Source of the DNA: Dehalococcoidia bacterium
Lineage (GTDB): Bacteria; Chloroflexota; Dehalococcoidia; Bin125
Reading direction: 5' to 3'
DNA length: 64,000 nt
Assembly (NCBI GenBank): GCA_965203775.1
Contig: OZ241913.1
Span: 2,832,015-2,896,014 of the forward strand
The notes beneath the pieces were generated by a model. The model ran no database searches. It worked only from the letters and a program-made list of their open reading frames with translations, and had not been told where the DNA came from. A program made the translations under genes and the position numbers. Position 1 is the first letter of the stretch; each line of letters opens with the position of its first letter. This document shows, in pieces, positions 6,901 through 59,730 of this stretch.

Positions 6901-7021
6901 GCCGGGCGGTCGTGTTGCGCAGGGTGCGCTGGTGCTCGGCGAGCACACGCCAGCTGGTCGGGCGGAGCTCCTGGAGGACCTCGCCGAGCTGGACATTGGT
7001 GGTGTCTTCGCGGGCCCGCAT
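3935..7021 (-). CDS. large gamma-class N6-adenine DNA methyltransferase-domain protein (~1028 aa), type IIG/IIL-like restriction-modification protein with N- and C-terminal extensions
   Basis: Motif X-like [27 protein letters not shown], motif [11 protein letters not shown], motif [10 protein letters not shown], then a post-catalytic [21 protein letters not shown] helix and a ~450-aa C-terminal TRD-like region. N-terminal segment [19 protein letters not shown] may be a degenerate PD-(D/E)XK. Start set at MRAREDTT (cat 7019-7021). The 1598-aa tracker ORF runs antisense through gatB and its first ~570 aa are spurious. Confidence 0.7.
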
Positions 7022-7108
7022 GGGGGACAGTGTAGCGGGTTTGGGGCGGTGCGGGAACGGACGTTCGGAGTCGCTGCTCAGATGCGCGCGAGTCGTAGAC
7101 TGTTCGGC
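7022..7108. promoter_or_regulatory. divergent intergenic region between the MTase-domain gene and gatB (probable divergent promoters)
   Basis: An 87-bp gap between divergently oriented starts. No motif was identified with confidence. Confidence 0.25.
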
Positions 7109-8620
7109 ATGACCACAGACACCGCAACCACCGCCGCCGCTGACTGGGAAACCGTGATTGGGCTTGAGGTCCACGCCCAGCTGCGCACTGAGAGCAAGAT
7201 GTTCTGCCGCTGCCCGGCCGACTACGCCGCGGCCGCGCCCAACACCTACGTCTGCCCGCTCTGCCTGGGCATGCCCGGCACTTTGCCCGTGATCAACCGC
7301 ACCGCCGTCGAGTGGACGATCCGCACCGCGCTCGCGCTCAACATGCGCATCCCCGAACTCTCCAAGTTCGACCGCAAAAACTACCCCTACCCCGACCTGA
7401 TGAAGGGCTACCAGATTTCGCAATACGACATGCCGCTCTCCGAGGGCGGCTGGATGGATGTCGAGACCGACGACCTGGGCCGCCAACGGATCGGCATCAC
7501 GCGCGTCCACCTCGAGGAGGACACCGCGCGGCTGCTGCACCGCGAGAGCGAGGCCGGCGAGCGCTTCTCGCTGGTCGACGTCAACCGCTCCGGCACGCCG
7601 CTGATGGAAATCGTCTCCGAGCCCGACATGCGCTCGCCCCAGCAGGCGCGCCAGTATCTGGTGCAGCTGCGCCAGATGCTGCGCTACCTGGGCGTCTCGA
7701 CCGCGGATATGGAGAAGGGCTCGTTCCGCTGTGACGCCAACGTCTCGCTGCGACGCCCCGGCGCGGCGGAGTTGGGCGCAAAGGTCGAGATCAAGAACAT
7801 GAACTCGTTCCGCAGCGTGCAGCGCGCGCTGGAGTTCGAGCAGTCGCGCCAGGCCGCCGCGCTCGAGGCGGGCGAGCTGATCGCGCAGGAGACGCGCGGC
7901 TGGGACGAAGAGGCGCAGATCACCGTCTCGCAGCGCTCCAAGGAGGAGGCGCACGACTACCGCTACTTCCCCGAGCCGGACCTGCCGCCGCTGCAGACCA
8001 GCCGCGCGACGGTCGAGGCGATTCGCGCCGCGCTGCCCGAGCTGCCCGCCGCCCGCCGCGCCCGCTTCGAGGCCGACTACGGGCTGCAACCGTTCGAGGC
8101 GGGGCTGCTCACCGAAGAGCCCGCGCCCTCGGAGTGGTTTGAAGCGTCGGTCGCCTCCTTGGGTGGCAAACAGGGGGACGGGAGCGCGGACGGGCTGCCG
8201 CGCATGATCGCGACCTGGTTCGTCGGCGAGCTGACCCGGCTGATGCACGAGGCCAAGCCGCCCGACACGCTGGACACGATCCGCGTGCAGCCCGCGCAGC
8301 TGGCCGGGCTGGTGCGGCTGATCGACGACGGAAGCATCAGCAACACCCAGGCCAAGGAGGTTTTCGCCGAGATGTACGCCTCGGGCGAGGACGCGGCTGC
8401 CGTCGTCGAGCGGCTCGGCGTCGCGCAGATTTCGGGCGAGGACGCGCTCGCGCCGATCATCCGCCAGGTGCTCGAGGAGCAGCCGCAGGCCGCGGCCGAC
8501 TACCGCGGCGGCAAGCCGGAGGCGCTGAAGTTTCTGGTCGGCCAGACAATGCGGCTGAGCCGCGGCCAGGCCAACCCCGCGCAGGCCTCCGAACTGCTCC
8601 GCGCCGCGCTCGAGGAGTAG
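7109..8620 (+). CDS. gatB: Asp-tRNA(Asn)/Glu-tRNA(Gln) amidotransferase subunit B
   Basis: MTTDTA...[13 protein letters not shown]...FCRCP...[15 protein letters not shown]...[11 protein letters not shown]... is a full-length GatB signature and includes the C-terminal YqeY-like tail. TAG stop at 8618-8620. Confidence 0.9.
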
Positions 8621-8627
8621 AGCGAGT

Positions 8628-11537
8628 ATGGCCGCGCAGCCGACCCAGACGACGATGACGATCGAGCCGTCGATGAGCGTCGACGAGTTCGTTGCCAAGT
8701 GGCGCAACGCGGCGCCGCGCGAGCGGGCCAACTCGCAAACTCACTTCAACGATCTCTGCGCCGTGCTCGACGTCGCCACGCCCGTCGAGGAAGACCCCAG
8801 CGGCGAGAGCTACACATTCGAGAAGCACGTCGATCTGCCCGGCGGCGGCAGCGGCGACGCCGATGTCTGGAAGCGCGGGCACTTCGGCTGGGAGTACAAG
8901 TCGGGCGGCAAGAGCCTCAGCGTCGCCTACGAGCAACTGCTGGGCTACCGCGAGGGGCTGGAGAACCCGCCGCTGCTCGTGGTCTGCGACATGAACCGCT
9001 TTGAAATCCATACCAACTTCACCAACACCGAGCCGCGCGTGATCGAGTTCACGCTCAAGCACCTGGAAGAAAATCCCACCCACTACATTCGGCTGCTGCG
9101 CGAGGTGTTTCTCGATCCCGAAGCGCTGCACCCGAATCGCGACCCGCGCTATATCACCGAAACCGCCGCAGCAAAGTTCGGCGAGGTGGCCGAGGCGCTG
9201 CGCGAGCGCGACGGGCACGACCCGGCGCTTGTCGCCCGCTTCCTCAACCGAATCATCTTCTGCTTCTTCGCCGAAAGCGTCGGCCTGTACCGCAATCTGC
9301 GCGGGGCAATCGAGAAGCCGGTCACCGATGTGTTCGACAACATGTCGGCCGACGCGACGCTGTCCAAACGGATCGTGGGGCAACTCTTCGAGGCGATGGC
9401 GGAACGCGACGTGCGCAACTTCGGCGCCTACTACATCCGCTGGTTCAACGGCGGCCTGTTCGACGAAACGGCGGTGCCCGAGACGTTGCAGCTGACGGGC
9501 GATCTGGCGCAGATCATCAACGAGACGGCGGAGTTGAACTGGTCGCGGGTGGATCCGGCGATCTTCGGGACGCTGTTCGAGCGCGGGCTGGATCCCAAGC
9601 GCCGCTCGCAGCTGGGCGCGCACTACACCGATCCGGACAACATCATGCGCGTGGTCGAGCCGGTCGCGCTGCGCCCCCTGCGCCGCGAATTCGACGCGCT
9701 GCGCGCCGAACTCGCGCCCGAACACAGGCTCGAAGACGCGCCGCCGCCCGGTTACGGCGAGAACAGCGCGCTGGCTTTCGAAGCGCCCGACCCCGACTCC
9801 CCCGCCGGGCGCATCCACGCCTTCCACCAACGCCTCGCGGCGGTGCGCGTGCTCGACCCCGCCTGCGGCTCCGGCAACTTCCTCTACATCGCAATGCGCG
9901 AGCTGAAAAACCTCGAACAGGAACTGATCGAGTGGGCGCAGCGCCTGGGCGTCAACGGCTTGCAGCGCCGCATCGGCCCCCAAAACATGCTCGGCATCGA
10001 TATCGACCCGTTCGCCGCCGACCTCACCCGTATGTCGCTCTGGATCGGCTACATCCAGTGGAACATCGAGCGAAACATCGACACCACCCGCGACCCCGTC
10101 CTCGGCCGCGCCGAGCAAATCGAATGCCGCGACGCCATCCTCGCCGAGGATGAGGAGGGCAACCCCATCCCCGCAGAGTGGCCCGAAGCGGAGTTCGTCG
10201 TGGGGAATCCGCCGTTTCTGGGCGGAAACCGATTACGCCGCGAGAGCGGCAATGCGTACGTTGACCGTCTTCAATCTGCCTACGCCAACGCCGTAGGCGG
10301 ACAAGCCGACCTTTGCGTCTATTGGCACGAGAGCGCTCGACGACAGATCGAGCAGCGCGCCACCCGCGCTGCTGGCCTCCTTGCCACGAACAGCATAGGC
10401 CAACCGTACAACCGCAAGGTCCTCGAGAACATCGCATCATCGGGAGGCATGTTCTTCGCGTGGCGTGATGAGCAGTGGTTCGACGACGGTACTGCCGTCC
10501 GCATTGCCATCGTCGGCCAAGACGACGGCAGCGAATCGGAACTCGAGCTCGACGGATCGCCAGTCGCCAAGATCAACCTCGATCTGACCGCAGGCGTCCC
10601 GGTTGCGTCAGCTGTGGAACTGGCTGAAAATTCCTCTATCGCGTTTCGGGGTGTTGGGCCTGCTGGACCATTTGACATCTCCTGGACCATTGCCGGGCGC
10701 ATGCTGGCGCGTCCCGTCAACGTGAATGGACGCCCGAATTCCGATGTGGTGATCCCGTTCGTCAACGCTCAAGACCTGGCGCAGACACGGCGGGGACAGC
10801 ACGTCATCGACTTCGGTCAGAGTACATCTATCGAAGACGCGGCTGACTATGAGGAGCCGTTCGAGTACGTGAGGCGACACGTTCTGCCGCGCCGCAAGCG
10901 CAGCAGGAACGACCAACTGCGCAACCAATGGTGGCTCCACGAGGCTTGGCGTCCCGGGATGCGCAAGGCGATCCAGCCGCTCAGTCGCTTCATTGCCACG
11001 CCAGTGACTTCCAAGCACCGCTTCTACGTGTGGCTGGATGCTGGCACACTGCCTGCCAGCTCAGTCAACGTCATAGCTCGTGACGACGACTACATATTCG
11101 GGGTTCTGCACTCGCGAATCCACCACGTTTGGGCTCTTGCGCAGGCAACACGCCTCGGTGTCGGGCCAGCAGACTCCCGCTACATCCACACTCGGTGCTT
11201 CAACACATTTCCGTTCCCTTGGCCACTGACGGCGTCCAACGATGATCTTACGGCCACTCAGCGACGGCAGCACAAAGCGATCTCCGCCGCGGCTGCATCG
11301 TTGGACGCAGCACGCACCCAATGGCTTAACCCCAGTGATGCGCCAGCGGAGCTCGTGCAAGAGCGCACGATGACCGACCTCTACAACGACACCGAAAAAG
11401 ATCCTCGCCCAAAGTGGCTGACCAACAGGCACCAGGCGATCGACAAAGCAGTGGCAGCCGCCTACGGCTGGCCCGCCGACCTGCCGGATGATGAAATCCT
11501 GTCCCGCCTGCTAGCCCTGAATCTGGAGCGCGCCTGA
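8628..11537 (+). CDS. MmeI-family type IIL restriction-modification enzyme (fused PD-ExK nuclease + gamma N6-adenine MTase + TRD), 969 aa
   Basis: Colinear with MmeI: nuclease D..EYK (HVDLPGG...FGWEYKSGGK vs MmeI VDLFW...LIEMKSRG); helical region (RIIFCFFAESVG); motif X (PAIFGTLFERGLDPKRRSQLGAHYTDPDNI vs PAIFGSLFQSIMDAKKRRNLGAHYTSEANI); motif I (VLDPACGSGNFL); motif IV (VVGNPPFLGG); C-terminal TRD. The start lies 8 bp after the gatB stop. Confidence 0.85.
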   Translation: MAAQPTQTTMTIEPSMSVDEFVAKWRNAAPRERANSQTHFNDLCAVLDVATPVEEDPSGESYTFEKHVDLPGGGSGDADVWKRGHFGWEYKSGGKSLSVAYEQLLGYREGLENPPLLVVCDMNRFEIHTNFTNTEPRVIEFTLKHLEENPTHYIRLLREVFLDPEALHPNRDPRYITETAAAKFGEVAEALRERDGHDPALVARFLNRIIFCFFAESVGLYRNLRGAIEKPVTDVFDNMSADATLSKRIVGQLFEAMAERDVRNFGAYYIRWFNGGLFDETAVPETLQLTGDLAQIINETAELNWSRVDPAIFGTLFERGLDPKRRSQLGAHYTDPDNIMRVVEPVALRPLRREFDALRAELAPEHRLEDAPPPGYGENSALAFEAPDPDSPAGRIHAFHQRLAAVRVLDPACGSGNFLYIAMRELKNLEQELIEWAQRLGVNGLQRRIGPQNMLGIDIDPFAADLTRMSLWIGYIQWNIERNIDTTRDPVLGRAEQIECRDAILAEDEEGNPIPAEWPEAEFVVGNPPFLGGNRLRRESGNAYVDRLQSAYANAVGGQADLCVYWHESARRQIEQRATRAAGLLATNSIGQPYNRKVLENIASSGGMFFAWRDEQWFDDGTAVRIAIVGQDDGSESELELDGSPVAKINLDLTAGVPVASAVELAENSSIAFRGVGPAGPFDISWTIAGRMLARPVNVNGRPNSDVVIPFVNAQDLAQTRRGQHVIDFGQSTSIEDAADYEEPFEYVRRHVLPRRKRSRNDQLRNQWWLHEAWRPGMRKAIQPLSRFIATPVTSKHRFYVWLDAGTLPASSVNVIARDDDYIFGVLHSRIHHVWALAQATRLGVGPADSRYIHTRCFNTFPFPWPLTASNDDLTATQRRQHKAISAAAASLDAARTQWLNPSDAPAELVQERTMTDLYNDTEKDPRPKWLTNRHQAIDKAVAAAYGWPADLPDDEILSRLLALNLERA

Positions 11538-18189: not shown

Positions 18190-19105
18190 CCACGCCACAC
18201 CCTCCGTCGCCACTGTGTCTTCCCACCGTCAATTCCTACACCGCCTCCGTTCTCAATTCCTGCCTCTCTTCCGCCATCAATTCCTGCACCGCCTCCGCCA
18301 CCAAATTCTGCCCCTCTTCCGCCATCAATTCCTGCACCCCCTCCGCCATTCCTGCCCCTTCCCGTCATTCCTGCGACCCTTCCGTCATTCCTGCGCAGGC
18401 AGGAACCACCCCACACCCCCACTTCCCCCAAATCCTGCTATGCTCACAACAGAACAGGAGTGCCGAACCATGCCTCTCTCCCCACAACAACGCCGCCGCG
18501 CCCCTCTTCCGTCATTCCTGCGCAGGCAGGAACCCAGCCCCACCTCACCCTCTCCCTTCCCCAATTCATCCCTCCCCCCTTTTAGGGGGAGGTTAGGTGG
18601 GGGGTGGGAACTTGCGAGCGCGTAAGAGGGTGCTGCGGCAGAGGCGCTCGCTCGGCCGCCAGCGCCGGCTCGGTGCGCCGACCCCCTCTTAGTCTCTCCC
18701 CTGGAAGGGGGGAGAGATGAATTGGGGCGCTTGCGCTCCTGCCGTCGTTCCTGCCTGCGCAGGAATGACGGAAGAGAGGGGCGTAGGAATCGGAAGTGGC
18801 GGGGCGCAGGAATGACGGATAACGGGGCGGGAATAACGGAAGTAGCGTTCGAGGCGTAGAACAGCGGTCGCTGCCTCATCGTTACTTCCCACCCCCCACC
18901 TAACCTCCCCCCTAAAAGGGGGGAGGGATGAATTTTTCTTGGGGTAGGTGTTTTGGTGTTTGGTTTGCGTGTTTGCGCGTCCGCGTGCGTCCGCGTGTGC
19001 GCACTCCTTTTCCTGGATCTTCCTCCATTCCGGTCCCTCCCCCCTTTTAGGGGGGAGGTTAGGTGGGGGGTGGGATGCACCGAGCGCGCACAGCGATCGC
19101 CCCCC
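18190..19105. repeat. intergenic repeat island (family-A TTCCTGCCTGCGCAGGAATGACGG units plus family-B hairpin elements)
   Basis: Multiple copies in both orientations of ccgtcattcctgcgcaggcaggaa and of cccaccccccacctaacctcccccctaaaaggggggagggatgaatt. Tracker ORFs here translate to SFLRRQE/VIPAQAGT artefacts. Confidence 0.8.
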
Positions 19106-24149: not shown

Positions 24150-24600
24150 CCCCCGTCATTCCTGCGCAGGCAGGAACCTGCGCCCTTCTCCGTCATTCCT
24201 GCGCAGGCAGGAACGCGCAGGCAGGAATGACGGAATGGAGCAGGGGCGGCCACTCGGCCGCTGGTAGATGCTCGGTGCGTCGCACCCCCCACCTAGCCTC
24301 CCCCCTAAAAGGGGGGAGGGATGAATTGGGGAAGGGGGAGAGGGGGTGCGTGCGTGCGCGGGAATGACGGCTTGCGCGGTTCCTGCCTGCGCAGGAATGA
24401 CGGAAAGGGTGGGCAGGAATGACGGAATGGAGCAGGGGCGGCCGCTCGGCCGCTGGTAGACGCTCGGTACGTCGCACCCCCCACCTAGCCCCCCCCTAAA
24501 AGGGGGGAGGGATGAATTGGGGAAGGGGGAGAGGGGGTGCGTGCGTGCGCAGGAATGACGAGAGGGGCGCGGGTTCCTGCCTGCGCAGGAATGGCGGGAG
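24150..24600. repeat. intergenic repeat island (two near-identical ~200-bp blocks, family A + family B)
   Basis: 24160-24360 and 24360-24560 are near-duplicates containing ccgtcattcctgcgcaggcagga... and cacccccccacctagcctcccccctaaaaggggggagggatgaattgggga. Confidence 0.8.
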
Positions 24601-24612
24601 CGCGGACGGGCG

Positions 24613-25284
24613 CTAGGCGTTGGAAGCCTCGGGCTCGGCGTCGGTGGGGGTTTCGGCGGTGGGCGCGGCTTCTTCGGCGGCCTCGGCTGCGGCTTCGGCC
24701 TCTTCCTCTTCGTCCTCGGCGGCGAGGCGCGGGGCGAGCACGGTGGCGATGCCGACCGCCTCATCGGCGAGCACGCGGACGCCCTCGGGCAGCGTGAGGT
24801 CGCGGACCAGCACGCTGGAGCCGAACTCGGCGAGACCGCTGATGTCGACCTCAAGCTCGGAGGGCATCTCGAGCGGCAGCGCTTCGAGCAGGATGTATTC
24901 GACCGACTGGACAAGCGTGCCGCCCAGCGCCACCGCTTCGGGGTCGCCGACCAGCACGAGGCGCGCCTCGCTGTGAATCGCGCGCGTCAGGTCCACCTGG
25001 TAGAAGTCGACGTGCAGCAGCTCGCCGCTGACCGGGTGGCGTTGCACCTCGCGGAGGACGACGGGCACGGTGCCGTCGCGTCCGTCAATCGCCATCTGCA
25101 CCACGGCGTTGCGGTCGACGGAGCGAAAGACGCGGCGCAGCTCGGCGAGCGGAGTTTGGATCGCGATGGAGTCGATGCCGCGCCCGTAGACGTTGCAAGG
25201 CAGCACGCCGTCGCGCCGCAGTCGCTTGACGGCGCTGCCGGTAACGCTGCGGGGCTGCGTGCGCAAGGTGGCCTGGTCGGGCAT
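24613..25284 (-). CDS. rplY: 50S ribosomal protein L25 / general stress protein Ctc
   Basis: MPDQATLRTQPRSVTGSAVKRLRRDGVLPCNVYGRG...; start at cat 25282-25284; acidic Ala/Glu-rich C-terminal tail typical of Ctc-type L25. Confidence 0.85.
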   Translation of the reverse strand: MPDQATLRTQPRSVTGSAVKRLRRDGVLPCNVYGRGIDSIAIQTPLAELRRVFRSVDRNAVVQMAIDGRDGTVPVVLREVQRHPVSGELLHVDFYQVDLTRAIHSEARLVLVGDPEAVALGGTLVQSVEYILLEALPLEMPSELEVDISGLAEFGSSVLVRDLTLPEGVRVLADEAVGIATVLAPRLAAEDEEEEAEAAAEAAEEAAPTAETPTDAEPEASNA

Positions 25285-25429
25285 GGCGGTCGCTCCAAGA
25301 GCGAGATTATGAGCCAAACGGCAAGTGGTCAAGCCCGCGCGCCACAAAGCCGCGGGAGCTTGCCGGCTCACCCCAAGCCTCCACTCGCCCCTTCCCCAAT
25401 TCATCCCTCCCCCCTTTTAGGAGTCTCCT

Positions 25430-25522
25430 GCAAAATGCCCAATTTCGGCGGATCCGCCGATCAGGCTCTATCTGGTCGGCACCCGCGTGCAGGCCCCAGA
25501 TCTGCCTTTTGCAGGAGACTCC
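25430..25522. other. ~93-nt structured element X1, inserted in the loop of a family-B hairpin (candidate ncRNA or novel MITE)
   Basis: Perfect 16-bp terminal inverted repeat ggagtctcctgcaaaa/ttttgcaggagactcc. The core cccaatttcggcggatccgccgatcaggctctatctggtcgg is shared with X2 at 39322..39425. It is flanked by a duplicated cttttag. Confidence 0.5.
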
Positions 25523-25612
25523 TTTTAGGGGGGAGGTTAGGTGGGGGGTGGGAGGTAGCGAGTGGGCGCACCGATCGTGTCCGCTCCTCCGACCCCCAAG
25601 GGTTTCGCAATT

Positions 25613-25750
25613 CCGTCATTCCTGCGCAGGCAGGAACGCGCGCTAGGTGCGGCCTCGTCCTGCGATGGGCGTTCGGCGGGCCGTCGCGGGATGCGCAGCG
25701 CATGCAGGCGCTAGCGGCCGCCCCCATTCCTGCCTGCGCAGGAATGACGG
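25613..25750. mobile_element. MITE-1 copy a (138 bp, family-A 25-bp terminal inverted repeats)
   Basis: ccgtcattcctgcgcaggcaggaac + ~90-nt internal (gcgcgctaggtgcggcctcgtcctgcgatgggcgttcggcgggccgtcgcgggatgcgcagcgcatgcaggcgctagcggccgcc) + ttcctgcctgcgcaggaatgacgg. Two more copies at 37589..37727 and 38795..38933. Confidence 0.7.
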
Positions 25751-26628
25751 GATGGGGGGGCGCAGGAATGACGGAGGGGGAGGAGAGGGGGTAGGAATGC
25801 TGGAGGTGGGGTGGCGTGGTTCCTGCCTGCGCAGGAAATGACGGCTTGCGCGGTTCCTGCCTGCGCAGGAATGACGGGAGGGGGGACGCAGGAATGACGG
25901 GAGTGTGGATGCGCTCTGGAGGGGTGCGGGGAGGAGAGCGTGGGCGGCCACTCGATCGCTGGTGGCGGCTCGGTGCTTCCCACCCCCCACCTAGCCTCCC
26001 CCCTAAAAGGGGGGAGGGATGAATTGGGGAAGGGGGGAGAGGGGTGGGGGTGGTTCCTGCCTGCGCAGGAATGACGGGTGGCGCGGTTCCTGCCTGCGCA
26101 GGAATGACGGAAAGGGGGGGGGGGGGGGCGCGGGAATGACGAGTGAAGGGGGGCGAGGGATGTACGGATGGTGGCCGCTCGGTGCCTCCCACCCCCCACC
26201 TAACCTCCCCCCTTTTAGGGGGGAGGGATGAATTGGGGAAGGGGGAGGGTGGGTGGTTCCTGCCTGCGCAGGAATGACGGTTTGCGCGGTTCCTGCCTGC
26301 GCAGGAATGACGGAAGGGGGCGCGCAGGAATGACGGAAAGGGGGGCGCAGGAATGACGGGAGTGTGGATGCGCTCTGGAGGAGTGGGGGGAGGAGTGTGG
26401 GCGGCCACTCGATCGGTGGTGGCGGCTCGGTGCTTCCCACCCCCCACCTAGCCTCCCCCCTAAAAGGGGGGAGGGATGAATTGGGGAAGGGGGGGTTCCT
26501 GCCTGCGCAGGAATGACGGGCGCGCCGCCGCGCCCACTCCTGCGCTTGCGCGGTTCCTGCCTGCGCAGGAATGACGGGAAGAGGGGCGCACGAATGACGG
26601 GCGCGCCGCCGCGCCCCCCACTCGCGGG

Positions 26629-29600
26629 CTAGTTGCCTAGCACGATTACGGAGCCGGGGGCGATTTGGAAGTTGGTGGCGCCGGGGATGGGGATGCCGGC
26701 GATCACGTTGTAGCGCAGCCAGACGCCGTCGGAGCGCCAGAAGAGCACCGAGTTGATGCCCAGCAGCTCCGCGACCAGCTCCGCCGCGCTGATTGGCTCG
26801 GCGCCCAGCCAGGTGTTGAAGCCGACGATTGCGCGGTTGCCCAAGTCGCCCGCGACGCCCGGCAGGGGCGGCGGCGGGGCCGTTGCGCCGTTGGGCAGGG
26901 GCACCGTGAGCAGCTGCACGTCGCTCACCGCGCACTGCGAGGTGCGCGCTTCCGCCGCGCCCGGCGCGTCTTCGGCGGCCGTGTCAGCGGCCGCCTGCGC
27001 GCCGCAGTTTGCGCCCGCCGTGACCACCACGCTGCCCGGCGTCACGACCAGATAGCTCGCCGTCGCCTGGCCGTCGGTGGTTGTGCGCTGGCGGGTCAGC
27101 TCGACGAGCACGACCGCGGCGCCCGTGGGCGTGCTGGACCACTCAACCGGCGTGCCGTTGGGCACCCGCGCGTCGTTCGCGTCGGTCAGCGTCGCGGTGA
27201 CCGTCAGCTGGTCGCCCACGCTGGGCGCGCCGTCGGGCGCGCTGAGCGCGACCGCCGCGGGCGGCCCGGCGACCATGAAGGTCTGCCGCCCGGTCAGCGA
27301 GCCGGCGCGCAACTCGATGGTGTACTCGCCGTTGGCCAGCGGCTGGGTCGACGCGCGGTTGACGTTGATTCGCACCTGCTCGTTGCGGTTGCCGTCGAGC
27401 GTCGGGCTGTCCGCCCCGCCCAGCGGCCACTCCACCGTCACGCCGCTGCTGACCAGCTTGCCGTCGGGATCGAGCACCCGCGCCAGCGAGCGGCCCGAGG
27501 GCAGCGCGACTTTCATCCCGTTCTCGTCGGCTGCGGTGACCGCCAGCGTCAGCTGGTCGCGGTGGTCGGTGTCGGTGCCGGCTTCTTCCGCACCTTCCGT
27601 CGATTCGGCGTTGATGTTGAGCACGCCGCTCTTGGGCGCGGCGATGCCGACTGAATCGGCGCTGCCCAGGAACATCACGGTGATCGGGCCGGCGGTGAGC
27701 GCTTCGCCGTTGTCCTTGGTCAGCCGCACGCGCAGCTCGGCGCTGCTCGCCGTCGAGCCGCCGGGGTGGGTGATGGTGACGTCGATCTTGTCCGAGTTGG
27801 CGCTGGTCAGCGACGCGACGGGAATTTGGCAGATCAGCCCGCCGCTGTTGCGGCAGCCGCTGCCGATGGTGGTGCCGAGCGAGCCGGCGCTGGTGGTGAC
27901 GAAGATGGTGTTGATGGTGGCGGGGGCGGAGGCGGTGCCGCCCTCGTTGAGCACCTTCAGCCGCAGCCGGGTGCTCTGGCCGGTGGCGATGCTGGACGGA
28001 TACGGCTGGCCGCGCCGCGCCACGACCGTCTGCTCGGCGAAGCCGAACTGCAGCGCCGCGACCTCCTCGAACGTGGCCGGATCGATCACCTGCACGGCGT
28101 AGGCTTCCGACTTGACTTCGGCGCCGTTGATGTTGAGCGTGCCGGAGATGGCGAAGTCGCCCAGCTCCGCGCCGGCGGGGATCACGATGTCGGCGTTGCC
28201 CAGGTCGATCGAGCAGGTCCACAGCGTGATGCCGGTATCGCCGGAGCCGCGGCACTCAGCGCCGCCGGTCGTCCAGTCGCTCGCGCTGGAGCCCACGAAG
28301 CCCTGGCCAAGCGGCATCTGCTCGCGGAGCAGCGCGGCGCGCGAGCGCGCCGTCACGCCCGGTATGCCCGTGTAGGTGTTGCGCCCCGTCGCCTCCCACT
28401 CGAGGTCGCCGGCGATCCGCAGCGTGCCGCCCGTCACATGCAGCGCCGAATCCAGGCCGTCGCCCGGACCGCTGAAGGTCAGCACGCCGCGCAGCCGCGC
28501 GGTCGAGCCGACCGCCGCCATGTTGTCCGAATCGTCGGCCAGCCGCAGGCTGAACGCCAGATCCTCGGGCAGCGCGGCATACTCCTCGCCGACGTTGAAC
28601 CACGCGATGTCGATCGGGTGATCATGGCGAGTCCGGATCGTTTGGTCGAACGTCTGCTGGAAGATGCCGCTCCCTACGGTCACGGTCCTGGTGTACGAGC
28701 TGCCGCGACGGGCAATCACGTAGCCCTGGCCTGCGGCGTCGACGTCAAAGGTGTACTCCGCTTTGCCGGCGGGATCGTCGCCGCCCAGCGTCGGCGTTGT
28801 CGAGTATGTGATGGTGCCGTCGCCGTACTTCGAGAGCACCGTCTGGCCGGCCGTCGCCGGAACGCCGCCCTCGTCCCAGAACACGTGGCTGCCATCCGGC
28901 ACCGGCTCGCCCTCGGCGTCGGTCAGCGCGGCGGTCAGCTTGATGGTGGAGGTGTCGTCCGGATCCAGGAGCTGCCAGCGCTCCTGCCCCGTCGCTCGCT
29001 CCAATTCGAGGCCGACCGTCGCTCCATCGCCGGTCGCGGCGGTCTGGTCCGTCTCGAAGTAGACGGAGGCGCTGGCGTCGCCGGCGCTGGCGATCACCAG
29101 CACTTTGTTGTTGCTGGCCTGCGTTGGGACGCGCGCGAACGTGGCCTCGGCGACGCCGCCGGTGGTGGTCTGGTCGGCCGCGCTGGCCCGCCACAACTCC
29201 GCATCCAGCTCTGCCGCTCCGCTGAAGCCGATCGCCCGCCAGGCGACGGGCGTGCTGTCGGGCATGGCGCCGCCGTTGGCGTCGGTCACCAGCGCCTGGA
29301 CGGTGAAGCGGCCCGAGGTGCGGCGCTGCTCGAGGGGCGCGACGACCCAGACGCGGCCCGGCTCGGACAGCACCGCGGAGGCGGTTTGGCCGGTCTCGAC
29401 ATCGAGGCTGTCGCTTGCCGGATCGCGCGTTCCGGCGACGGCCGTGGCCGTGATCGTGACGCTGCCTTCGGAGAGCACGCGGAAGACGCCCCAGGCGCGT
29501 CCGTTGCTGTCGGTGCGGGTGGTCTGGAAATTGCCCCTCGCCTCGACGATGCAGGGCTGGACGGGGCACGTGACGGGATCACCCGACTCACCCGTGGCGG

Positions 29601-29955
29601 CCACCTGCCAGGTCACCGTTGCGCCGTCGGCGTAGTCGGGGACGAGCACTCCCTCGTCCTCGCGGCCGGCCTTACAGACGCGGAAACCGCCTGGTTCTGC
29701 AGCGTCGCCGCTGCATTCTAAGGTCGAGCCGGTCTGCACCCGCGCTTCGACGTAGAAGTAGCTCCAGAGGGCGAGCGAGCCGACCGGCTCGCTAAGTGTG
29801 ACTGTCGCCGGGGCGACTCGAATCTGCTGCGCGCCCGCGCCGGGCGAGAGGGCGAGCAGGGCGGCGGCGGCCAACAGCGCGAGCAGCGCCGCCGACACCC
29901 AACGCGCTCCCCCCCCCGCCACGGCGGAACCGGCTCGTTTGACAGGCAGCATCAA
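26629..29955 (-). CDS. giant secreted protein with multiple bacterial Ig-like (Big/invasin-like) domains, 1108 aa
   Basis: Signal peptide MMLPVKRAGSAVAGG...LLALLAAAALLALSPGAGAQQ. Recurring ~90-aa beta-rich repeats (…LTVTATLTDANDARVPNGTPVEWS…). The C-terminal ~65 aa are shared with the proteins at 33689..37249 and 62370..>64000. Confidence 0.75.
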   Translation of the reverse strand: MMLPVKRAGSAVAGGGARWVSAALLALLAAAALLALSPGAGAQQIRVAPATVTLSEPVGSLALWSYFYVEARVQTGSTLECSGDAAEPGGFRVCKAGREDEGVLVPDYADGATVTWQVAATGESGDPVTCPVQPCIVEARGNFQTTRTDSNGRAWGVFRVLSEGSVTITATAVAGTRDPASDSLDVETGQTASAVLSEPGRVWVVAPLEQRRTSGRFTVQALVTDANGGAMPDSTPVAWRAIGFSGAAELDAELWRASAADQTTTGGVAEATFARVPTQASNNKVLVIASAGDASASVYFETDQTAATGDGATVGLELERATGQERWQLLDPDDTSTIKLTAALTDAEGEPVPDGSHVFWDEGGVPATAGQTVLSKYGDGTITYSTTPTLGGDDPAGKAEYTFDVDAAGQGYVIARRGSSYTRTVTVGSGIFQQTFDQTIRTRHDHPIDIAWFNVGEEYAALPEDLAFSLRLADDSDNMAAVGSTARLRGVLTFSGPGDGLDSALHVTGGTLRIAGDLEWEATGRNTYTGIPGVTARSRAALLREQMPLGQGFVGSSASDWTTGGAECRGSGDTGITLWTCSIDLGNADIVIPAGAELGDFAISGTLNINGAEVKSEAYAVQVIDPATFEEVAALQFGFAEQTVVARRGQPYPSSIATGQSTRLRLKVLNEGGTASAPATINTIFVTTSAGSLGTTIGSGCRNSGGLICQIPVASLTSANSDKIDVTITHPGGSTASSAELRVRLTKDNGEALTAGPITVMFLGSADSVGIAAPKSGVLNINAESTEGAEEAGTDTDHRDQLTLAVTAADENGMKVALPSGRSLARVLDPDGKLVSSGVTVEWPLGGADSPTLDGNRNEQVRINVNRASTQPLANGEYTIELRAGSLTGRQTFMVAGPPAAVALSAPDGAPSVGDQLTVTATLTDANDARVPNGTPVEWSSTPTGAAVVLVELTRQRTTTDGQATASYLVVTPGSVVVTAGANCGAQAAADTAAEDAPGAAEARTSQCAVSDVQLLTVPLPNGATAPPPPLPGVAGDLGNRAIVGFNTWLGAEPISAAELVAELLGINSVLFWRSDGVWLRYNVIAGIPIPGATNFQIAPGSVIVLGN

Positions 29956-30099: not shown

Positions 30100-30640
30100 C
30101 CCCCCCCCGGCGAGATTTGACACTCTCTTTACACCGTTCCGCCACTCCCTACTTCCCGCTCTCCCCTCCCCCAATTCATCCCTCCCCCCTTTTAGGGGGG
30201 AGGTTAGGTGGGGGGTGGGAAGCCCCGAGCCGGCGCTGGCGGCCCTCTTGCACCGCGATCGCCTCGCCCGCGTTCCTGCCTGCGCAGGAATGACGAGTGG
30301 GGGGCGCAGGAATGACGGGCGGGCGCGGTTCCTGCCTGCGCAGGAATGACGGAGGAGGGGCGTGGGCGGCCACTCGATCGCTGGTGGACGCTCGGTGCCT
30401 CCCACCCCCCACCTAACCTCCCCCCTAAAAGGGGGGAGGGATGAATTTTCTTGGGGTAGGTGTTTTGGGGTGGGGAGGTGCTTGGTGTGCTGCGTGTGCG
30501 GTTCCTGCCTGCGCAGGAATGACGGAGGGGGCGCAGGAATGACGGAAGTGTGGAGCGCAGGAATGACGGGCGGGCGCGGCGGGTTCCTGCCTGCGCAGGA
30601 ATGACGGAGGAGGGGCGCAGGAATGACGGGAGTTTGGACA
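30100..30640. repeat. intergenic repeat island
   Basis: Family-B hairpins at ~30180 and ~30400 and family-A units throughout. Contains a poly-C/G run at 30100-30115. Confidence 0.8.
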
Positions 30641-30644
30641 GGCG

Positions 30645-32749: not shown

Positions 32750-32890
32750 CGTATCACCGCGCGTTCCTGCCTGCGCAGGAATGACGGGGAGGAGGGGCAG
32801 GAATGACGATTGGGGGGCGCGGGTTCCTGCCTGCGCAGGAATGACGGGGAGGGGCGCGCGGTTCCTGCCGGCGCAGGAACCAACGGAGGC
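32750..32890. repeat. short repeat island (family-A units)
   Basis: Four family-A copies: gttcctgcctgcgcaggaatgacgg. Confidence 0.8.
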
Positions 32891-32894
32891 GTCC

Positions 32895-33251
32895 CTAGCC
32901 CCCGCCGCGCGCAATCAGCCAGCCGAGCATGGCGAGGTTGGACCCTGCCAGCAGACCAACCGCCCAAGTCAGCATCGTGAAGCGGCGGTCGGTGCTCTCT
33001 TTGAAGTCGTCGAAGCGTTGGTTGACGTTTTCCTTGAAGTCGCTGAAGCGTTGCCCCAGAGCTTTCTGCTCCTGCTCGAGGACGATCAGGTGCTGCTCAA
33101 CACCGTTGAGGCCCTGCTCAAGGTCCTTCTGGCCCTGGCGCAGATCGCGCAGGCCGTCGTCAAGGTGCGTGAAGCGCCGGTCGAACTCCGCCGAGCGGCG
33201 CTCGAATTCGTCGCGGTGGACGAAGGGGGGTTGCTCTTCTGCGGTGACCAT
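32895..33251 (-). CDS. hypothetical tail-anchored coiled-coil protein (118 aa)
   Basis: Internal RF(S/D)DFKE(N/S) repeats, then a C-terminal TM helix WAVGLLAGSNLAMLGWLIARGGG. Good codon usage. Confidence 0.5.
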   Translation of the reverse strand: MVTAEEQPPFVHRDEFERRSAEFDRRFTHLDDGLRDLRQGQKDLEQGLNGVEQHLIVLEQEQKALGQRFSDFKENVNQRFDDFKESTDRRFTMLTWAVGLLAGSNLAMLGWLIARGGG

Positions 33252-33254
33252 GAG

Positions 33255-33665
33255 CGAAGCATAGCAGGGCTGGGGGTTCCTGCCTGCGCAGGAATGACGG
33301 GGAGGGGGCGCGGGAATGACGGGGAGGGGGCGCAGGAATGACGGGTGGGGCGCGCGGTGGCCACTCGATCTCTGGTGGACGCTCGGTGCCTCCCACCCCC
33401 CACCTAACCTCCCCCCTAAAAGGGGGGAGGGATGAATTGGGGAAGGGGTGGGGAGGGGGTGGGTGGGTGCGCGGTTCCTGCCTGCGCAGGAATGACGAAG
33501 TGGGGCGCAGGAATGACGGAGGGGGGGCGCGGTTCCTGCCTGCGCAGGAATGACGGGAGGGGGGCGCGGTTCCTGCCTGCGCGGTTCCTGCCTGCGCAGG
33601 AATGACGAAGTGCGGGGATGACGGGTGGGGGTGGGTTATAGTAAACTGGCTGGCAGATTTCGCTC
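33255..33665. repeat. intergenic repeat island
   Basis: One family-B hairpin (~33400) flanked by family-A units. Confidence 0.8.
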
Positions 33666-37254: not shown

Positions 37255-38005
37255 GGTCATTCCTGCGCCTCTCTCCGTCATTCCTGCGTAGGCAGGAACC
37301 CCCCGATCGCCCCCGCACCCGTCATTCCTGCCTACGCAGGAATGACGGGCGATTTCCCCAATTCATCCCTCCCCCCTTTTAGGGGGAGGTTAGGTGGGGG
37401 GTGGGAGGCCGCGAGCGAGCGCCGGCCGCCCGTTCGCGCCGCGCTCGCTTCCCCCCGTTCCGTACATTCCTGCCCCTTCTCCCCGTCATTCCTGCGCAGG
37501 CAGGAACCCGCGCGACCCCACCGTCGTACTCCTCCCCCCTCCGTCATTCTGCGCCCCTCCCCCGTTCCGTACATTCCTGCCCCCCTCTCCGTCATTCCTG
37601 TGTAGGCAGGAACGCGCGGTGGGTGCGGCCTCGTCCTGCGGTGGGCGTTCGGCGGGCCGCCGCGGGATGTGCGGCGCATACGGGCGCTAGCGGCCGCCCC
37701 CCATTCCTGCCTACGCAGGAATGACGGAATAGGCGATCGGGGTACAGAAGAGCGGCCGGCAAACGCTCGCACCTCCCACCCCCCACCTAACCTCCCCCCT
37801 TTTAGGGGGGAGGGATGAATTGGAGAAGTCAACCGTCATTCCTGCGTAGGCAAGGAGCCAGGGGAGGGGTCGCGCGGTTCCTGCCTGCGCAGGAATGACG
37901 GTGGGGTCGCGCAGGTTCCTGCCTGCGCAGGAATGACGGTGGGATCGCGCAGGTTCCTGCCTGCGCAGGAATGACGGGAGTCTGGACACGCCCTAGCCGG
38001 GGGAG
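37255..38005. repeat. intergenic repeat island (includes MITE-1 copy b at 37589..37727)
   Basis: Family-B hairpins at ~37370 and ~37790; family-A units; a MITE-1 with a TIR variant (cctgtgtaggcaggaac). Confidence 0.8.
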
Positions 38006-38009
38006 GCCA

Positions 38010-38507
38010 TCACTGCGCCTCCCGTGCGCGACGCGCGGCGCGGCGGTAACGCTGGCTGTCGGGCGGAGCCAGGTCCAGCGGCAAGGTGCGATGGGCCTCA
38101 TCGAGCATCGCGCACAGAGCTTGAACATTCGGCATCTGACGACGGATCCTTGCCGGCCTCAGAAGGTCGTCGTAGAAATTCACGTGCAGCCGTTCGGCGG
38201 CGGCGAACCTGACGCTGAGCTCGGGCGGGTCGGGCTCAAGCGCCTCGTCGATGCGATCCACCAGCTCGCCCGCGACGCCGTGCTCGCAGTAGTACCACTC
38301 GCGGGCGTGGGCGAAGACTTTGAGCCGGCGCGTCACCGCGCCCCACAGCTTCTCGCACACTTGAGCGCGGAGTTCGCCGTCGATCTCCGCGTCCGAGCGG
38401 GCGAGGATTGCGGCGGCTGCCGCCAGCAGGGCGTCGCTGGTGCGGAGGTGCGGCTCGAGGGGCGGCTCTGGGGGGAGGTAGGGGATTGGCTGGGGGCTGG
38501 CCATCAC
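38010..38507 (-). CDS. fifth member of the paralog-array family (165 aa), stand-alone copy
   Basis: MMASPQPIPYLPPEPPLEPHLRTSDALLAAAAAILARSDAEIDGELRAQVCEKLWGAVTRRLKVFAHAREWYYCEHGVAGELV.... Flanked on both sides by repeat islands. Confidence 0.65.
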   Translation of the reverse strand: MMASPQPIPYLPPEPPLEPHLRTSDALLAAAAAILARSDAEIDGELRAQVCEKLWGAVTRRLKVFAHAREWYYCEHGVAGELVDRIDEALEPDPPELSVRFAAAERLHVNFYDDLLRPARIRRQMPNVQALCAMLDEAHRTLPLDLAPPDSQRYRRAARRAREAQ

Positions 38508-38529
38508 ATCGCCTCCTGTGTATGGCGCA

Positions 38530-39545
38530 TGGGCAGCGTATCACCGCCTGGGGGGCTGTTCGTCGCTTCTGCGCCCCTCTCCGTCATTCCTGCGCAGGCA
38601 GGAATGACGGGCGCCTTCCCCAATTCATCCCTCCCCCCTTTTAGGGGGGAGGTTAGGTGGGGGGTGGGAGGCTGCGAGCGAGCGCCGACCGCCCGTTCGC
38701 GCCGCGCGCTCAAAATCGTCATTCCTGCGCAGGCAGGAACCGCGCGACCCCACCGTCGTACCCCTCCCCCCACCGTCATTCCTGCGCCCTCTTTCCGTCA
38801 TTCCTGCGCAGGCAGGAACGCGCGGTGGGCGCGGCCTCGTCCTGCGATGGGCGTTCGGCGGGCCGCCGCGGGATGTGCGGCGCATACGGGCGCTAGCGGC
38901 CGCCCCCCATTCCTGCCTGCGCAGGAATGACGGAAAATGGCGCAGGAGTGACGGAGAGAGGGGGTAGGAGTGACGGGGAGAGAGGGGGTAGGAGTGACGG
39001 AAGAAGCAGGAGTGACGGGGAGAGAGGGGGTAGGAGTGACGGAATTGTGAAGCCCTTTGGGGGTTGGGGGAGTGGACACGATCGGTGCGCCCGCTCGGTA
39101 CGTCCCACCCCCCACCTAACCTCCCCCCTAAAAGGGGGGAGGGATGAATTGGGGAATTCAACCGTCATTCCTGCGTAGGCAGGAAGCCAGGTGTGTGCGC
39201 GCGCGGGTTCCTGCCTGCGCAGGAATGACGGAATTGCGAAGCCCTTGGGGGTCGGGGGAGTGGACACGATCGGTGCGCCCGCTCGGTACGTCCCACCCCC
39301 CACCTAGCCTCCCCCCTAAAAGCAGACCTTCGCGTAACCCCCAAATTCGGCGATGCAGGCCGATCGCCTCTATCTGGTCGGGTTGTCCACCACACAGCGA
39401 AATTCGGGGTTGCGCGAAAGTCTGCTAAAAGGGGGGAGGGATGAATTGGGGAAGTCGCCCGTCATTCCTGCGGAGGCAGGAAGCAGGGGTGTGAGTGCGC
39501 AGGTTCCTGCCTGCGCAGGAATGACGGAATAGGCGCGTGGATGCC
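38530..39545. repeat. intergenic repeat island (includes MITE-1 copy c at 38795..38933 and element X2 at 39322..39425)
   Basis: Family-B hairpins at ~38630, ~39110, ~39300 (interrupted) and ~39420. Tandem ggtaggagtgacgg units at 38960-39040. Confidence 0.8.
39322..39425. other. ~104-nt structured element X2, inserted in a family-B hairpin loop (candidate ncRNA or novel MITE)
   Basis: Closing stem gcagaccttcgcg/cgcgaaagtctgc (13 bp, different sequence from X1 but still complementary). Shares the core ccaaattcggcg...gccgatcgcctctatctggtcgg with X1. Flanked by ctaaaag duplicated. Confidence 0.5.
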
Positions 39546-46334: not shown

Positions 46335-46690
46335 GGAGCCCTCTCTCCATCGCACCCTTTCCCTCCGCCATACCCGCACCCTTTCCCTCCGTCATTCCTG
46401 CGCAGGCAGGAACCCACCCACCCCCGCCCCTTCCTCAATTTATCCCTCCCCCCTTCCAGGGGGGAGGTTAGGTGGGGGGTGGAAGGCAGCGAGCCGACAC
46501 CCCAGTCGCACCGCGCCCCGATCGCCCCCGCCGCCCTCTCCGTCGCACCCCCCCTCCGTCGCACCCGCCCCCTTCGTCATACCTGCGCCCTCTCCGTCGC
46601 ACCCGTCCCCTTTCCGTCATACCCGCACCCCTCTCCGCCATTCCTGCGCCCCTTTCCGTCATTCCTGCGCAGGCAGGAACGGCGGAAATG
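46335..46690. repeat. intergenic repeat island
   Basis: Family-B hairpin at ~46450 and family-A units. The tracker ORF 46472..47995 reads through this island before the real start. Confidence 0.8.
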
Positions 46691-48584: not shown

Positions 48585-48719
48585 TGGATCGGTTTCCTTA
48601 CCTGGCGCTGTCGCGCGGCTTACGCCGCGTAGTTCGGATTTCGCATACGCTCGCAGGATACGCGCAGGCGCGCCGCAGGTCTGCGGGCGCGTTCGCCCGC
48701 AGTGGGGAGCGGAGACCGC

Positions 48720-49604
48720 ATGGCCGACAATCTGCCCGACATTTCGCCCGATCATTCGCCCAATACGACGCCCGCCGAGATGGCCGGTGGCGGGCCGATC
48801 ATCGTCGCCTCGAACGTCCACAAGACCTACGCCGCCGAGGGGCAGCCGGTGCATGCGCTGCGCGGCGTCTCGCTCTCGGTCGACCGCGGCGAGATGGTCT
48901 CGATCATGGGTCCTTCGGGCTGCGGCAAGACCACGCTGCTCAACTGCCTTTCGGGGCTTGAGGTGATCGATGAGGGCGAGATCACGATCGAGGGCTCGCC
49001 GATTCAGACGATGCCCGACAACGTGCGCACCGACTACCGCGCGCGGCGGATGGGCTTCGTCTTTCAGTTCTACAACCTGCTGCCGGTGCTGACCGCGGTC
49101 GAGAATGTGGAGATGCCGCTGCTGCTCAGCGGGGTGCGTCCGGGCGAGGCGCGGCGGCGGGCGATGGAGGCGCTGGAGACGCTCTCGCTGGGCGACTGGG
49201 CGCGGCACCGCCCGGCGCAGCTGTCGGGCGGGCAGCGGCAGCGCGTCACGATCGCCCGCGCGCTGGTCAACAATCCAACCATCGTCTGGGGCGACGAGCC
49301 AACCGGCGACCTCGACTCGACCACCGCGGACCAGATTATGAGGCTGATGGAGCAGCTCAACGAGGAGCGCGGGCAGACATTCATCATCGTCACGCACGAT
49401 CAGGGCGTGGGCGCGCGCGCGCACCGCACGATCCACATGCGCGACGGCGAGATCGAGGACGAAACCGTACACCGCCCGTTCGCGCGGCGCGGCGCGGCGG
49501 GGCCGAGCGCCGCCGATCCGGAGGCGGTCTGGGCGGGGCAGCACGACGCCGGCGAGCAGCAGGATGAGCGCGGGATGGCGGCCGCCGCGGAGCCGCGGCG
49601 ATGA
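48720..49604 (+). CDS. ABC transporter ATP-binding protein (MacB/LolD/FtsE-like)
   Basis: Walker [10 protein letters not shown], signature [15 protein letters not shown], Walker [14 protein letters not shown]-loop VTHD. Confidence 0.85.
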
Positions 49605-52600: not shown

Positions 52601-53122
52601 CATCTGGTCGCGGTGCGCGGCGGCGAGGACTCGCTGGAGGTCGCGCAGGAGATCGAGTCGACGCTGCTGATCGAGGCCAACGACCTGGCCGGCGAACAGG
52701 AGCGCAACGCGCGGCTGACCAACTCGTTCCTGCGTGCATTCCAGGCGTTTATCGGCATCGGCCTGGCAGCAGGTCTGGCGGCGCTGGGCGTGATCGCAGT
52801 GCGCGCAGTGGTGGAGCGGCGCGGGCAGATCGGCGTGCTGCGCTCGCTCGGCTTCCGCTCGCGGATGGTCGGCCTCGAAATGCTGCTGGAAATGGGCTTC
52901 ATCGCCTTCCTCGGCGTCGCGCTGGGCACCACGCTGGCGCTCGCGCTCGCCTGGCGGCTGTTCGATGAGCAGACTTTCGGCCCCGGCATCTCGCTCTACA
53001 TTCCCGTCGGCACGATCGCGATCTTCGTCGTGGGCGCGCTGGCCGCGTCGCTGGTGCTGACCTATCTGCCCGCGCGGCAGGCGGCGCGCACGACCATCGC
53101 CGAAGCGCTGCGCTACGAGTAG
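49601..53122 (+). CDS. ABC transporter permease, FtsX-like family (MacB-type, two FtsX domains, ~1170 aa)
   Basis: Overlaps the ATPase gene by 4 bp. N-terminal TM then a large periplasmic domain. Two 4-TM FtsX-like blocks (…[25 protein letters not shown]… and …[18 protein letters not shown]...[12 protein letters not shown]). Confidence 0.85.
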
Positions 53123-53131
53123 CATCTACAT

Positions 53132-54606: not shown

Positions 54607-54661
54607 CTCGCACTCCTCTCGGTCGGCTCAACCAGCATAGAAGCGCAGCGCTGCGCTTCAG

Positions 54662-55309: not shown

Positions 55310-55365
55310 CTTGGCCTCCTCTCGGTCGGCTCAACCAGCATAGAAGCGCCGTGCGGCGGCGCGGG

Positions 55366-59469: not shown

Positions 59470-59730
59470 TTAATCGAGCGGGGCGATCTTGCCCGGGAGC
59501 TGGTTGCGCGAGGCGCGCTCCCAGGCGGCGCGCAACTCTGCTTGCCGCTCGGACGCCCACTTGAGCACTTGCGCTTGAACGCGCGGCGGCAGCCGGCCGT
59601 GCAGCACTTCCGGATTTGCGATGCTGACCCGCGCTTCGGCCTCGGCGTAGCGCACATGAATATGCGGCGGCGCATGGTCGCCGCAGAGCATCGTGATCAC
59701 GATGCCGTTGAAGCGGCAGAGCTCAGGCAT
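59470..59730 (-). CDS. DUF4160 domain protein
   Basis: MPELCRFNGIVITMLCGDHAPPHIHVRYAEAEA matches the DUF4160 consensus (FxGIxIxMxxxDHxPPHxHVxY). Confidence 0.75.
   Translation of the reverse strand: MPELCRFNGIVITMLCGDHAPPHIHVRYAEAEARVSIANPEVLHGRLPPRVQAQVLKWASERQAELRAAWERASRNQLPGKIAPLD

Follow-up and report, generated by a model that had tools for sequence, protein, structure and literature searches.

The C-terminal domain (CTD) of the type IX secretion system (T9SS) of Bacteroidota (Por_Secre_tail, PF18962 / TIGR04183) is a folded unit of ~80 amino acids (aa) located at the extreme C terminus of many Sec-exported proteins with unrelated architectures, and it is found in many copies per genome within a restricted lineage. 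In monoderm bacteria, the non-covalent wall anchors SLH, CWB2, WxL, LysM, and SH3b retain proteins at the envelope without a membrane anchor, and WxL is also C-terminal and contains Trp. Dockerin (PF00404) is a small C-terminal module that is joined through a Pro-rich linker to diverse secreted enzymes and structural proteins. Variable S-layer families, such as the Campylobacter fetus sapA homologues and the Bacillus/Geobacillus proteins Sap, EA1, SbsB, and SbsC, have numerous paralogues in which one end is conserved and the other variable, and they evolve as mosaics. Here, we describe a C-terminal domain of ~75–80 aa, referred to below as the tail, that shares the listed traits with each of these systems, with the wall anchors through the job that we propose for it. 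The tail is carried by three proteins (P1, P2, and P3) encoded in a 64,000-nucleotide (nt) stretch of a Dehalococcoidia bacterium genome (contig OZ241913.1, positions 2,832,015 to 2,896,014; ~69% GC), which we call the window. It is an uncatalogued domain, new to Pfam and NCBIfam, and it forms a new family whose job is probably of a known kind.

All three open reading frames (ORFs) named in the original prediction are present. P1 (26629..29955, minus strand) encodes a secreted Ig-like protein of 1108 aa with a Big_1 match (E=2e-9). P2 (33689..37249, plus strand) encodes a secreted protein of 1186 aa, supported by the Pfam scan and by a positional orthologue in locus L005. P3 (62370..64000, minus strand) runs past the window edge with its C-terminal 542 aa visible; its reading frame is the one that ends at 63998, with no stop in the 542 residues up to the edge, and its 1228-aa orthologue P0002 is 97% identical. 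The proteins had been described as giant, but at about 1100–1230 aa they are large rather than giant. The last 78–83 residues of the three can be aligned (alignment A2), and W, W, W-x-R-Y, A, L, and G are unchanged in all of them. The tail comprises the last 78 aa of P1 (26632..26865, minus), the last 80 aa of P2 (37007..37246, plus), which finish with an acidic GDDD, and the last 83 aa of P3 (62373..62621, minus), and each is supported by hidden Markov model (HMM) matches. An alignable C-terminal module on all three proteins is thereby confirmed, and the Pfam scan places it, as predicted, behind the final, weak Big_1 match of each protein, immediately downstream of a Pro/Ala-rich linker (Ala/Pro/Glu-rich across the family). 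The motif string first given for the module was approximately right, although the final Trp is missing from P1, which ends in ...VIVLGN, and GEES replaces PGS in P2.

The HMM built from the three tails was searched against a six-frame translation of the window and found no copy beyond the three, the next match having E=2.8. An exhaustive HMMER search of 1.84 billion cluster representatives with the same profile returned 321 clusters (at 50% identity) at E≤1e-3, 83 of them at E≤1e-10. Because one profile finds 321 proteins at this threshold, the similarity of the three tails is far beyond chance. A word-indexed homologue search returned only a fragment of a P2 orthologue with alignment A2 and nothing with alignment A3. 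The family consensus reads ..L-S-s-T-x-P-N-x-F-S-T-W-x-G...T-A-S-E-L-L-a-x-L-x-G-V-x-s-I-L-L-W-n-G-x-x-W-x-R-Y-g-V-x-D-G-r-x-[VI]-P-G-S-x-D-F-x-I-x-x-G-d-V-L-W-L. Conservation is complete for one Trp, reaches 97% for the Tyr, and exceeds 88% at nine further positions. Pairwise identity is 0.36–0.45 in the tail, as compared to 0.23–0.35 in most of the upstream core, making the tail the best-conserved contiguous block of the family.

An AlphaFold2 (AF2) model of the isolated P1 tail, calculated from the three-sequence alignment, gave a confident small alpha/beta unit with a predicted local distance difference test score (pLDDT) of 91.5 and a predicted template modeling score of 0.80. Its elements run in the order short helix, strand, helix, beta-hairpin, short bridges, and final strand, and they reappear as the same fold at the end of the model calculated for the visible 542-aa part of P3. 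The AlphaFold check thus supports a discrete fold, while the expectation that the tail would be beta-rich is largely borne out, since the model contains 4–5 strands but also one clear helix. Based on the model, the tail is predicted to be a discrete, autonomously folding alpha/beta domain of ~75 aa. A degenerate Ig domain was considered and rejected; an hhalign comparison of the tail with the four Ig-like domains of the family gave <1% probability, as compared to 14–47% for those domains among themselves. Neither is the tail a bacterial Ig-like Big_1 domain (PF02369), as the Big_1 matches end upstream of it and the model contains a helix.

To place the tail among known families, 38 diverse tails, together with the three proteins at full length, were scanned against Pfam and NCBIfam (E≤1). 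No relevant match was obtained, including to the sorting-signal and anchor models, the TIGRFAM sorting-signal models being carried within NCBIfam. The suggestion that the module follows no LPXTG, PEP-CTERM, SLH, or T9SS pattern and is unlike known families therefore held up in both databases. The T9SS type A CTD (PF18962 / TIGR04183) and type B CTD (TIGR04131) models did not match; the T9SS CTD is a 7-stranded beta-sandwich, whereas the tail is predicted to be alpha/beta with a clear helix, and its host belongs to a class of Chloroflexota that is described in the literature as monoderm, with neither an outer membrane nor a T9SS. SLH (PF00395), CWB2, WxL, LysM, and SH3b likewise gave no Pfam match, and the tail is single-copy rather than a tandem repeat, in contrast to the usual three tandem repeats of ~55 aa in SLH. 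The sortase, exosortase, and archaeosortase signals (LPXTG, PEP-CTERM, PGF-CTERM, GlyGly-CTERM, and others) had no NCBIfam match; with a mean of ~0.96 for the best 19-residue hydropathy in their last 60 aa, the proteins show nothing transmembrane-like there, and their final residues are G-N, G-E, or acidic. The RTX models of type I secretion had no Pfam match, N-terminal signal-like segments are present, and the tail is folded. At the structural level, a profile search of all Protein Data Bank (PDB) sequences with the tail found nothing under E=0.04, and a Foldseek search with the tail model found nothing under E=0.26 in the PDB and nothing under E=0.16 among the predicted viral folds of BFVD. 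Literature searches returned no description of the domain.

Two other assignments were tried and dropped. One of the 38 tails matched DUF4430, an SLBB-type beta-grasp family, at E=0.02, which is chance level across 38 scans; there is a motif resemblance (W-x-Y...G-D-x-I-x-W), and neither the PDB profile search nor Foldseek supported the assignment. A PASTA-like topology, proposed from the beta-alpha-beta-beta order, was likewise unsupported by Pfam and Foldseek.

The distribution of the tail was analyzed in the 150 best database matches together with the three window proteins. The domain envelope ends at the last residue of the protein in 132 of 157 cases; in most remaining cases, a few more residues or a short acidic D/E/G/S stretch come after it. 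An internal copy is present in four proteins, and one apparent exception (P0026) results from read-through into repeat sequence resembling repetitive extragenic palindromes (REPs). Among the 118 tail proteins of at least 500 aa, 96 have a hydrophobic signal-like segment in the first 75 residues, those lacking one look like truncated gene calls, and none has a transmembrane-like C-terminal segment. The tail also occurs on proteins of quite different architecture: right-handed beta-helix/NosD proteins (P0043, P0067, and P0108), an arylsulfotransferase (ASST; P0142) together with a second tail-bearing ASST adjoining it in locus L010, Vps62-like proteins (P0056 and P0146), and others such as P0077. 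These hosts, about 10 in number and only about 7% of the matches seen, lack the core domain described below, so the tail is separable from it, and its presence on such proteins means that it acts as a transferable tag for extracytoplasmic proteins. The putative sorting, anchoring, or docking role first suggested for the module is accordingly well matched by its C-terminal placement on varied exported hosts, which is the distribution expected of such a tag. In L010 (6235-9755), the two tandem ASST genes that end in the tail lie inside a methylmalonyl-CoA mutase/MeaB cluster.

Most hosts share far more than the tail. In BLASTP, each pairing of the three proteins (P1/P2, P1/P3, and P2/P3) gives an unbroken alignment of 548–568 residues at 36–44% identity (E 1e-74 to 1e-123). 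The proteins are therefore not otherwise divergent, as had been stated, and are homologous across the C-terminal ~550 aa, which comprise the tail and a common core of ~470 aa with roughly four Ig-like domains; only the N-terminal halves differ. The core spans aa ~575–1030 of P1 (26866..28233, minus; BLASTP 36–39% identity over 548–568 aa, alignment A1) and aa ~643–1106 of P2 (35615..37006, plus; BLASTP and alignment A1). P1 is thus organized as a signal-like N terminus, a variable N-terminal half with weak Big_1 matches, the core, the linker, and the tail. P2 consists of an N terminus with a GGGG-DTAR sequence, a hydrophobic signal-like segment, an N-terminal region of ~640 aa with no significant Pfam match, the core, and the tail. 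For the visible part of P3 (542 residues), the AF2 model (pLDDT 77) shows roughly four Ig-like domains and an all-beta structure as far as residue ~455, after which come the linker and the tail. The best PDB matches of this stalk by Foldseek are strings of Ig-like domains, headed by the S-layer proteins Sap, SbsC, SbsB, and EA1 and followed by complement, invasin, and FdeC, all with low TM-scores of 0.2–0.27. As a separate observation, a G-G-G-G-(D/K/S/T)-x-(A/K)-R motif stands directly before the hydrophobic core of the signal peptide in P2 (33689-33820), P0005, P0007, P0032, P0037, P0038, and P0133. This motif is subfamily-specific and is not a twin-arginine motif.

In 126 of 154 tail-bearing proteins (the window's three plus the top 150 database matches), a core HMM detected a core of ~410 aa directly upstream of the tail; the 4390-aa P0134 is one of them. 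The common unit is therefore a cassette of core, linker, and tail behind a variable N-terminal region, and the spread of the tail is mostly that of one cassette and not free domain shuffling. This dominance, with only about 10 core-less hosts, would fit the view that the tail has no special role and simply closes the structure of a single expanded family specific to this lineage, being copied elsewhere at times by recombination. We regard this as very unlikely, as by hhalign the tail shows no relationship in fold to the remainder of the protein, the flexible linker sets it apart, it is better conserved than the core, and unrelated exported proteins have acquired it on repeated occasions, each time at the C terminus.

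The host lineage bears on the surface to which such proteins would be delivered. Dehalococcoidia and SAR202-type Chloroflexota are abundant, largely uncultured bacteria with poorly characterized cell envelopes, and Pfam, NCBIfam, and limited literature searches gave no sorting or surface-anchoring domain for them. In a genome-collection scan with the core alignment as the query, which covers core-bearing proteins, every match was to a 'MAG: Dehalococcoidia bacterium' chromosome (OZ251529.1, OZ251457.1, and OZ241849.1; each 3.2–3.3 Mb; MAG, metagenome-assembled genome). One tail-bearing protein carries the NCBI label 'Chloroflexi bacterium'. All related loci have a GC content of 65–72%, and the amino-acid composition of all tail host proteins is of the high-GC type. 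Since housekeeping genes in the window, among them those for an M48 peptidase, an acyl-CoA synthetase, a carboxyltransferase, and a binding protein, are 96–98% nt identical to those of OZ241849.1, the window belongs to the same or a sister species. The sample label 'PANK22-1' suggests that the material may stem from a sponge-microbiome study. The tail is kept in homologs from related Dehalococcoidia, in agreement with the original prediction, and it seems confined to high-GC uncultured Dehalococcoidia (Chloroflexota). The class is described as monoderm, without outer-membrane genes, and its cultured members of the genus Tepidiforma are monoderms with peptidoglycan and a tetragonal S-layer that bears additional regularly spaced protein complexes (PMC10284905).

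Our current hypothesis, to which we assign a little less than an even chance, is that the tail anchors exported proteins non-covalently to the cell envelope and thereby displays them on the surface of what would be an S-layer-bearing monoderm. The host proteins, predicted to be Sec-exported, consist of a signal peptide, a variable head, an Ig-like stalk of about four domains, a Pro/Ala linker, and the tail. Once exported, the tail would bind a conserved envelope component, possibly peptidoglycan, a secondary wall polymer, or the S-layer, and the stalk would hold its variable head, or in some proteins an enzyme (an arylsulfotransferase, for example), away from the cell. Three Trp, W-x-R-Y, and PGS-x-DF, which are the aromatic and loop residues under conservation, would form the core of the fold and the binding face. 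Anchoring is the most economical reading because the proteins combine a folded C-terminal domain after a flexible linker with Sec-type N termini, no other recognizable anchor, and a conserved stalk with a variable head, because enzymes bear the tail as well, and because the class is monoderm with an S-layer. Several points weigh against it. The S-layer-protein matches of the stalk reflect generic similarity among Ig strings (TM 0.2–0.27), and the monoderm S-layer envelope is described for cultured Tepidiforma, not for the present lineage. In addition, one core-plus-tail cassette dominates the top 150 matches (126 of 154), leaving about 10 core-less proteins to support the independence of the tail as a module.

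The near-strict C-terminal position of the tail, its occurrence on diverse exported proteins that include enzymes, and its T9SS CTD-like size and folded state would also suit a sorting or secretion signal, one that a lineage-specific machine recognizes in its folded form after Sec export and then cleaves or covalently processes. A candidate for such a machine is an operon at 48633-53962 (plus), 8.4 kb from P3, that encodes an ABC ATPase, a 1173-aa double-FtsX MacB-like permease at 49601-53122, and an alpha/beta hydrolase. The orthologous operon (83/59/66% aa identity) at 21213-26214 of L011, a Dehalococcoidia-like contig, is directly convergent with the gene for the tail-bearing P0134. This proximity may reflect a functional link or plain conserved synteny, and we treat it as a lead only. 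A sorting signal is unlikely overall, as none of the T9SS type A, type B, or other sorting models matched in the scans above and monoderm Chloroflexota have no outer membrane for their proteins to cross (PMC10284905). Moreover, some copies are internal or have acidic extensions behind them, which would be more easily explained by a binding domain than by a terminal threading signal. Lastly, all-versus-all clustering of the ORFs of 12 loci revealed no recurrent sortase-like, protease-like, or secretion gene, and at 10 loci no processing gene recurs beside family members.

Comparison of closely related strains provides a view of how the family changes. The positional orthologue of P2 (L005 9959-13405, OZ241849.1) is 62% identical at the protein level between flanking genes that are 96–98% nt identical. 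Identity is 66–84% over the first 800 residues and 31–50% over the last ~390, tail included. The C-terminal 386 residues of P2 are instead 47% identical to a neighboring L005 paralogue, closer than to the C terminus of the positional orthologue, and this sharp drop indicates, at the level of sequence, cassette exchange among paralogues. A protein from another sample (P0001) has a tail that is 92% identical to that of P2. The opposite arrangement is seen in P1, whose orthologue on contig L001 (P0003) is 90% identical and represents the closest strain pair; the N-terminal half is 73–96% identical, the C-terminal half is 95–100% identical, and the tail is identical. Family members occur in pairs at four related loci, and at least 10 paralogues lie in the ~120 kb sampled from OZ241849.1, as compared to 3 in the window. 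From these identity patterns, the tail-bearing family is judged to be fast-evolving, recombining, and mosaic between near-identical genomes, and such a hypervariable adhesin-like family likely matters for host, phage, or particle interactions.

Such hypervariability is what would be expected at a host or phage interface, and together with the adhesin-like hosts (Ig strings, FG-GAP, and beta-helix) and a Trp/Tyr/Phe-rich tail whose highly conserved PGS-x-DF loop is reminiscent of many carbohydrate-binding modules, it could point to an outward-facing, lectin-like binder of host or environmental glycans or matrix, with retention on the cell or release achieved by other means. We consider this improbable. 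No other anchor (transmembrane segment, LPXTG, SLH, or lipobox) is visible in these proteins, and if the tail is not the anchor, nothing holds them on the cell. Furthermore, because the closest strain pair of P1 varies N-terminally and has an identical tail, the end distal to the tail is the variable one, which fits a cell-proximal constant region better than a ligand-binding one.

The same layout of one conserved and one variable end, combined with mosaicism, recalls the variable S-layer genes of Campylobacter fetus. With S-layer proteins as the top structural neighbors of the stalk and the many paralogues per genome, it could suggest that the tail is a dockerin-like or self-assembly module that binds a scaffold or S-layer subunit or oligomerizes, the family then being a set of interchangeable S-layer or coat proteins. 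In the known variable S-layer families, however, the conserved, anchoring end is N-terminal (SLH or a lipopolysaccharide-binding region) rather than C-terminal as here; there is no sequence homology, and the tail family is not known to form a lattice. In contrast to dockerin, the tail has no match to the Pfam model, no internal duplication in its alignment, no duplicated EF-hand-like calcium loop, and no identified cohesin-like partner. Tail-bearing enzymes of the arylsulfotransferase type would also be unlikely lattice subunits, and we find this explanation doubtful.

A further reading, which we put forward tentatively, is that the tail is the address tag of an undescribed surface-display system with a dedicated envelope receptor or processing partner, in which rapidly diversifying and recombining adhesin-like heads, as well as exo-enzymes, are mounted on a constant stalk and anchor. 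If so, monoderm Chloroflexota would possess an equivalent of the display systems built on CTDs or SLH domains, and the tail would serve to define the surface proteome. The surface-exposed proteome of these bacteria would be predictable from sequence, the tail would point to the envelope component that it binds, and the display of a hypervariable, mosaic adhesin-like family would be accounted for. With 321 clusters at 50% identity and a confident predicted fold, the tail is ready to be described as a new Pfam/NCBIfam family.

The original prediction also noted that the three genes are bracketed by repeat islands. A REP-like palindrome, TTCCTGCCTGCGCAGGAATGAC, is present in 60 copies in the window, as compared to 0 expected, at positions 474; 18384-18769; 24155-26575; 30273-30605; 32764-33606; 37277-39525; 46391-46679; 48164; and 60221-62199. 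The palindrome search delimited islands on both sides of P1 (24136..26613 on the 3' side and 30156..30643 on the 5' side), on both sides of P2 (32750..33614 on the 5' side and 37258..39525 on the 3' side), and on the 3' side of P3 (60221..62199). The bracketing is therefore real for P1 and P2 and seen 3' of P3, but it is not specific to the tail genes, because the same islands fill other intergenic sites across the window. The suggested recombination among the genes finds indirect support in the mosaicism of P2, but nothing ties this mosaicism to the islands. An Rfam search of the whole window gave no match, so the islands fall outside known RNA families. The palindrome is embedded in composite repeat units of 140–300 nt, and the repeats give rise to many spurious long ORFs with translations such as 'VIPAQAGT', 'SFLRRQEP', and 'LPPFRGEVRWGVG'. 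The island 3' of P3 (60100-62200) contains three tandem units of ~660–720 bp, each of which has the same three palindromes as well as Pro/Thr-rich pseudo-ORFs ('PTPSTYPKHLPQA').

Several other gene arrays were observed in the window. Between P1 and P2 (30645-32717, minus) lie four tandem paralogues of ~170 aa, 63–84% nt identical, with a weak PaREP1/HEPN-like Pfam match, and a fifth copy is held within the island downstream of P2 (~38000-38450). Three tandem 215-aa paralogues of the Uma2 family (PF05685), which are putative endonucleases, are found at 53959-56013 (minus) and are followed by a DUF2442 gene at 59723-60076 (minus). At 3935-8731 (minus), a 1598-aa Eco57I/N6-methylase-like protein of the single-polypeptide restriction-modification type is encoded, and beside it, at 8628-11537 (plus), is the gene for a 969-aa MmeI-like protein that contains all four MmeI domains.

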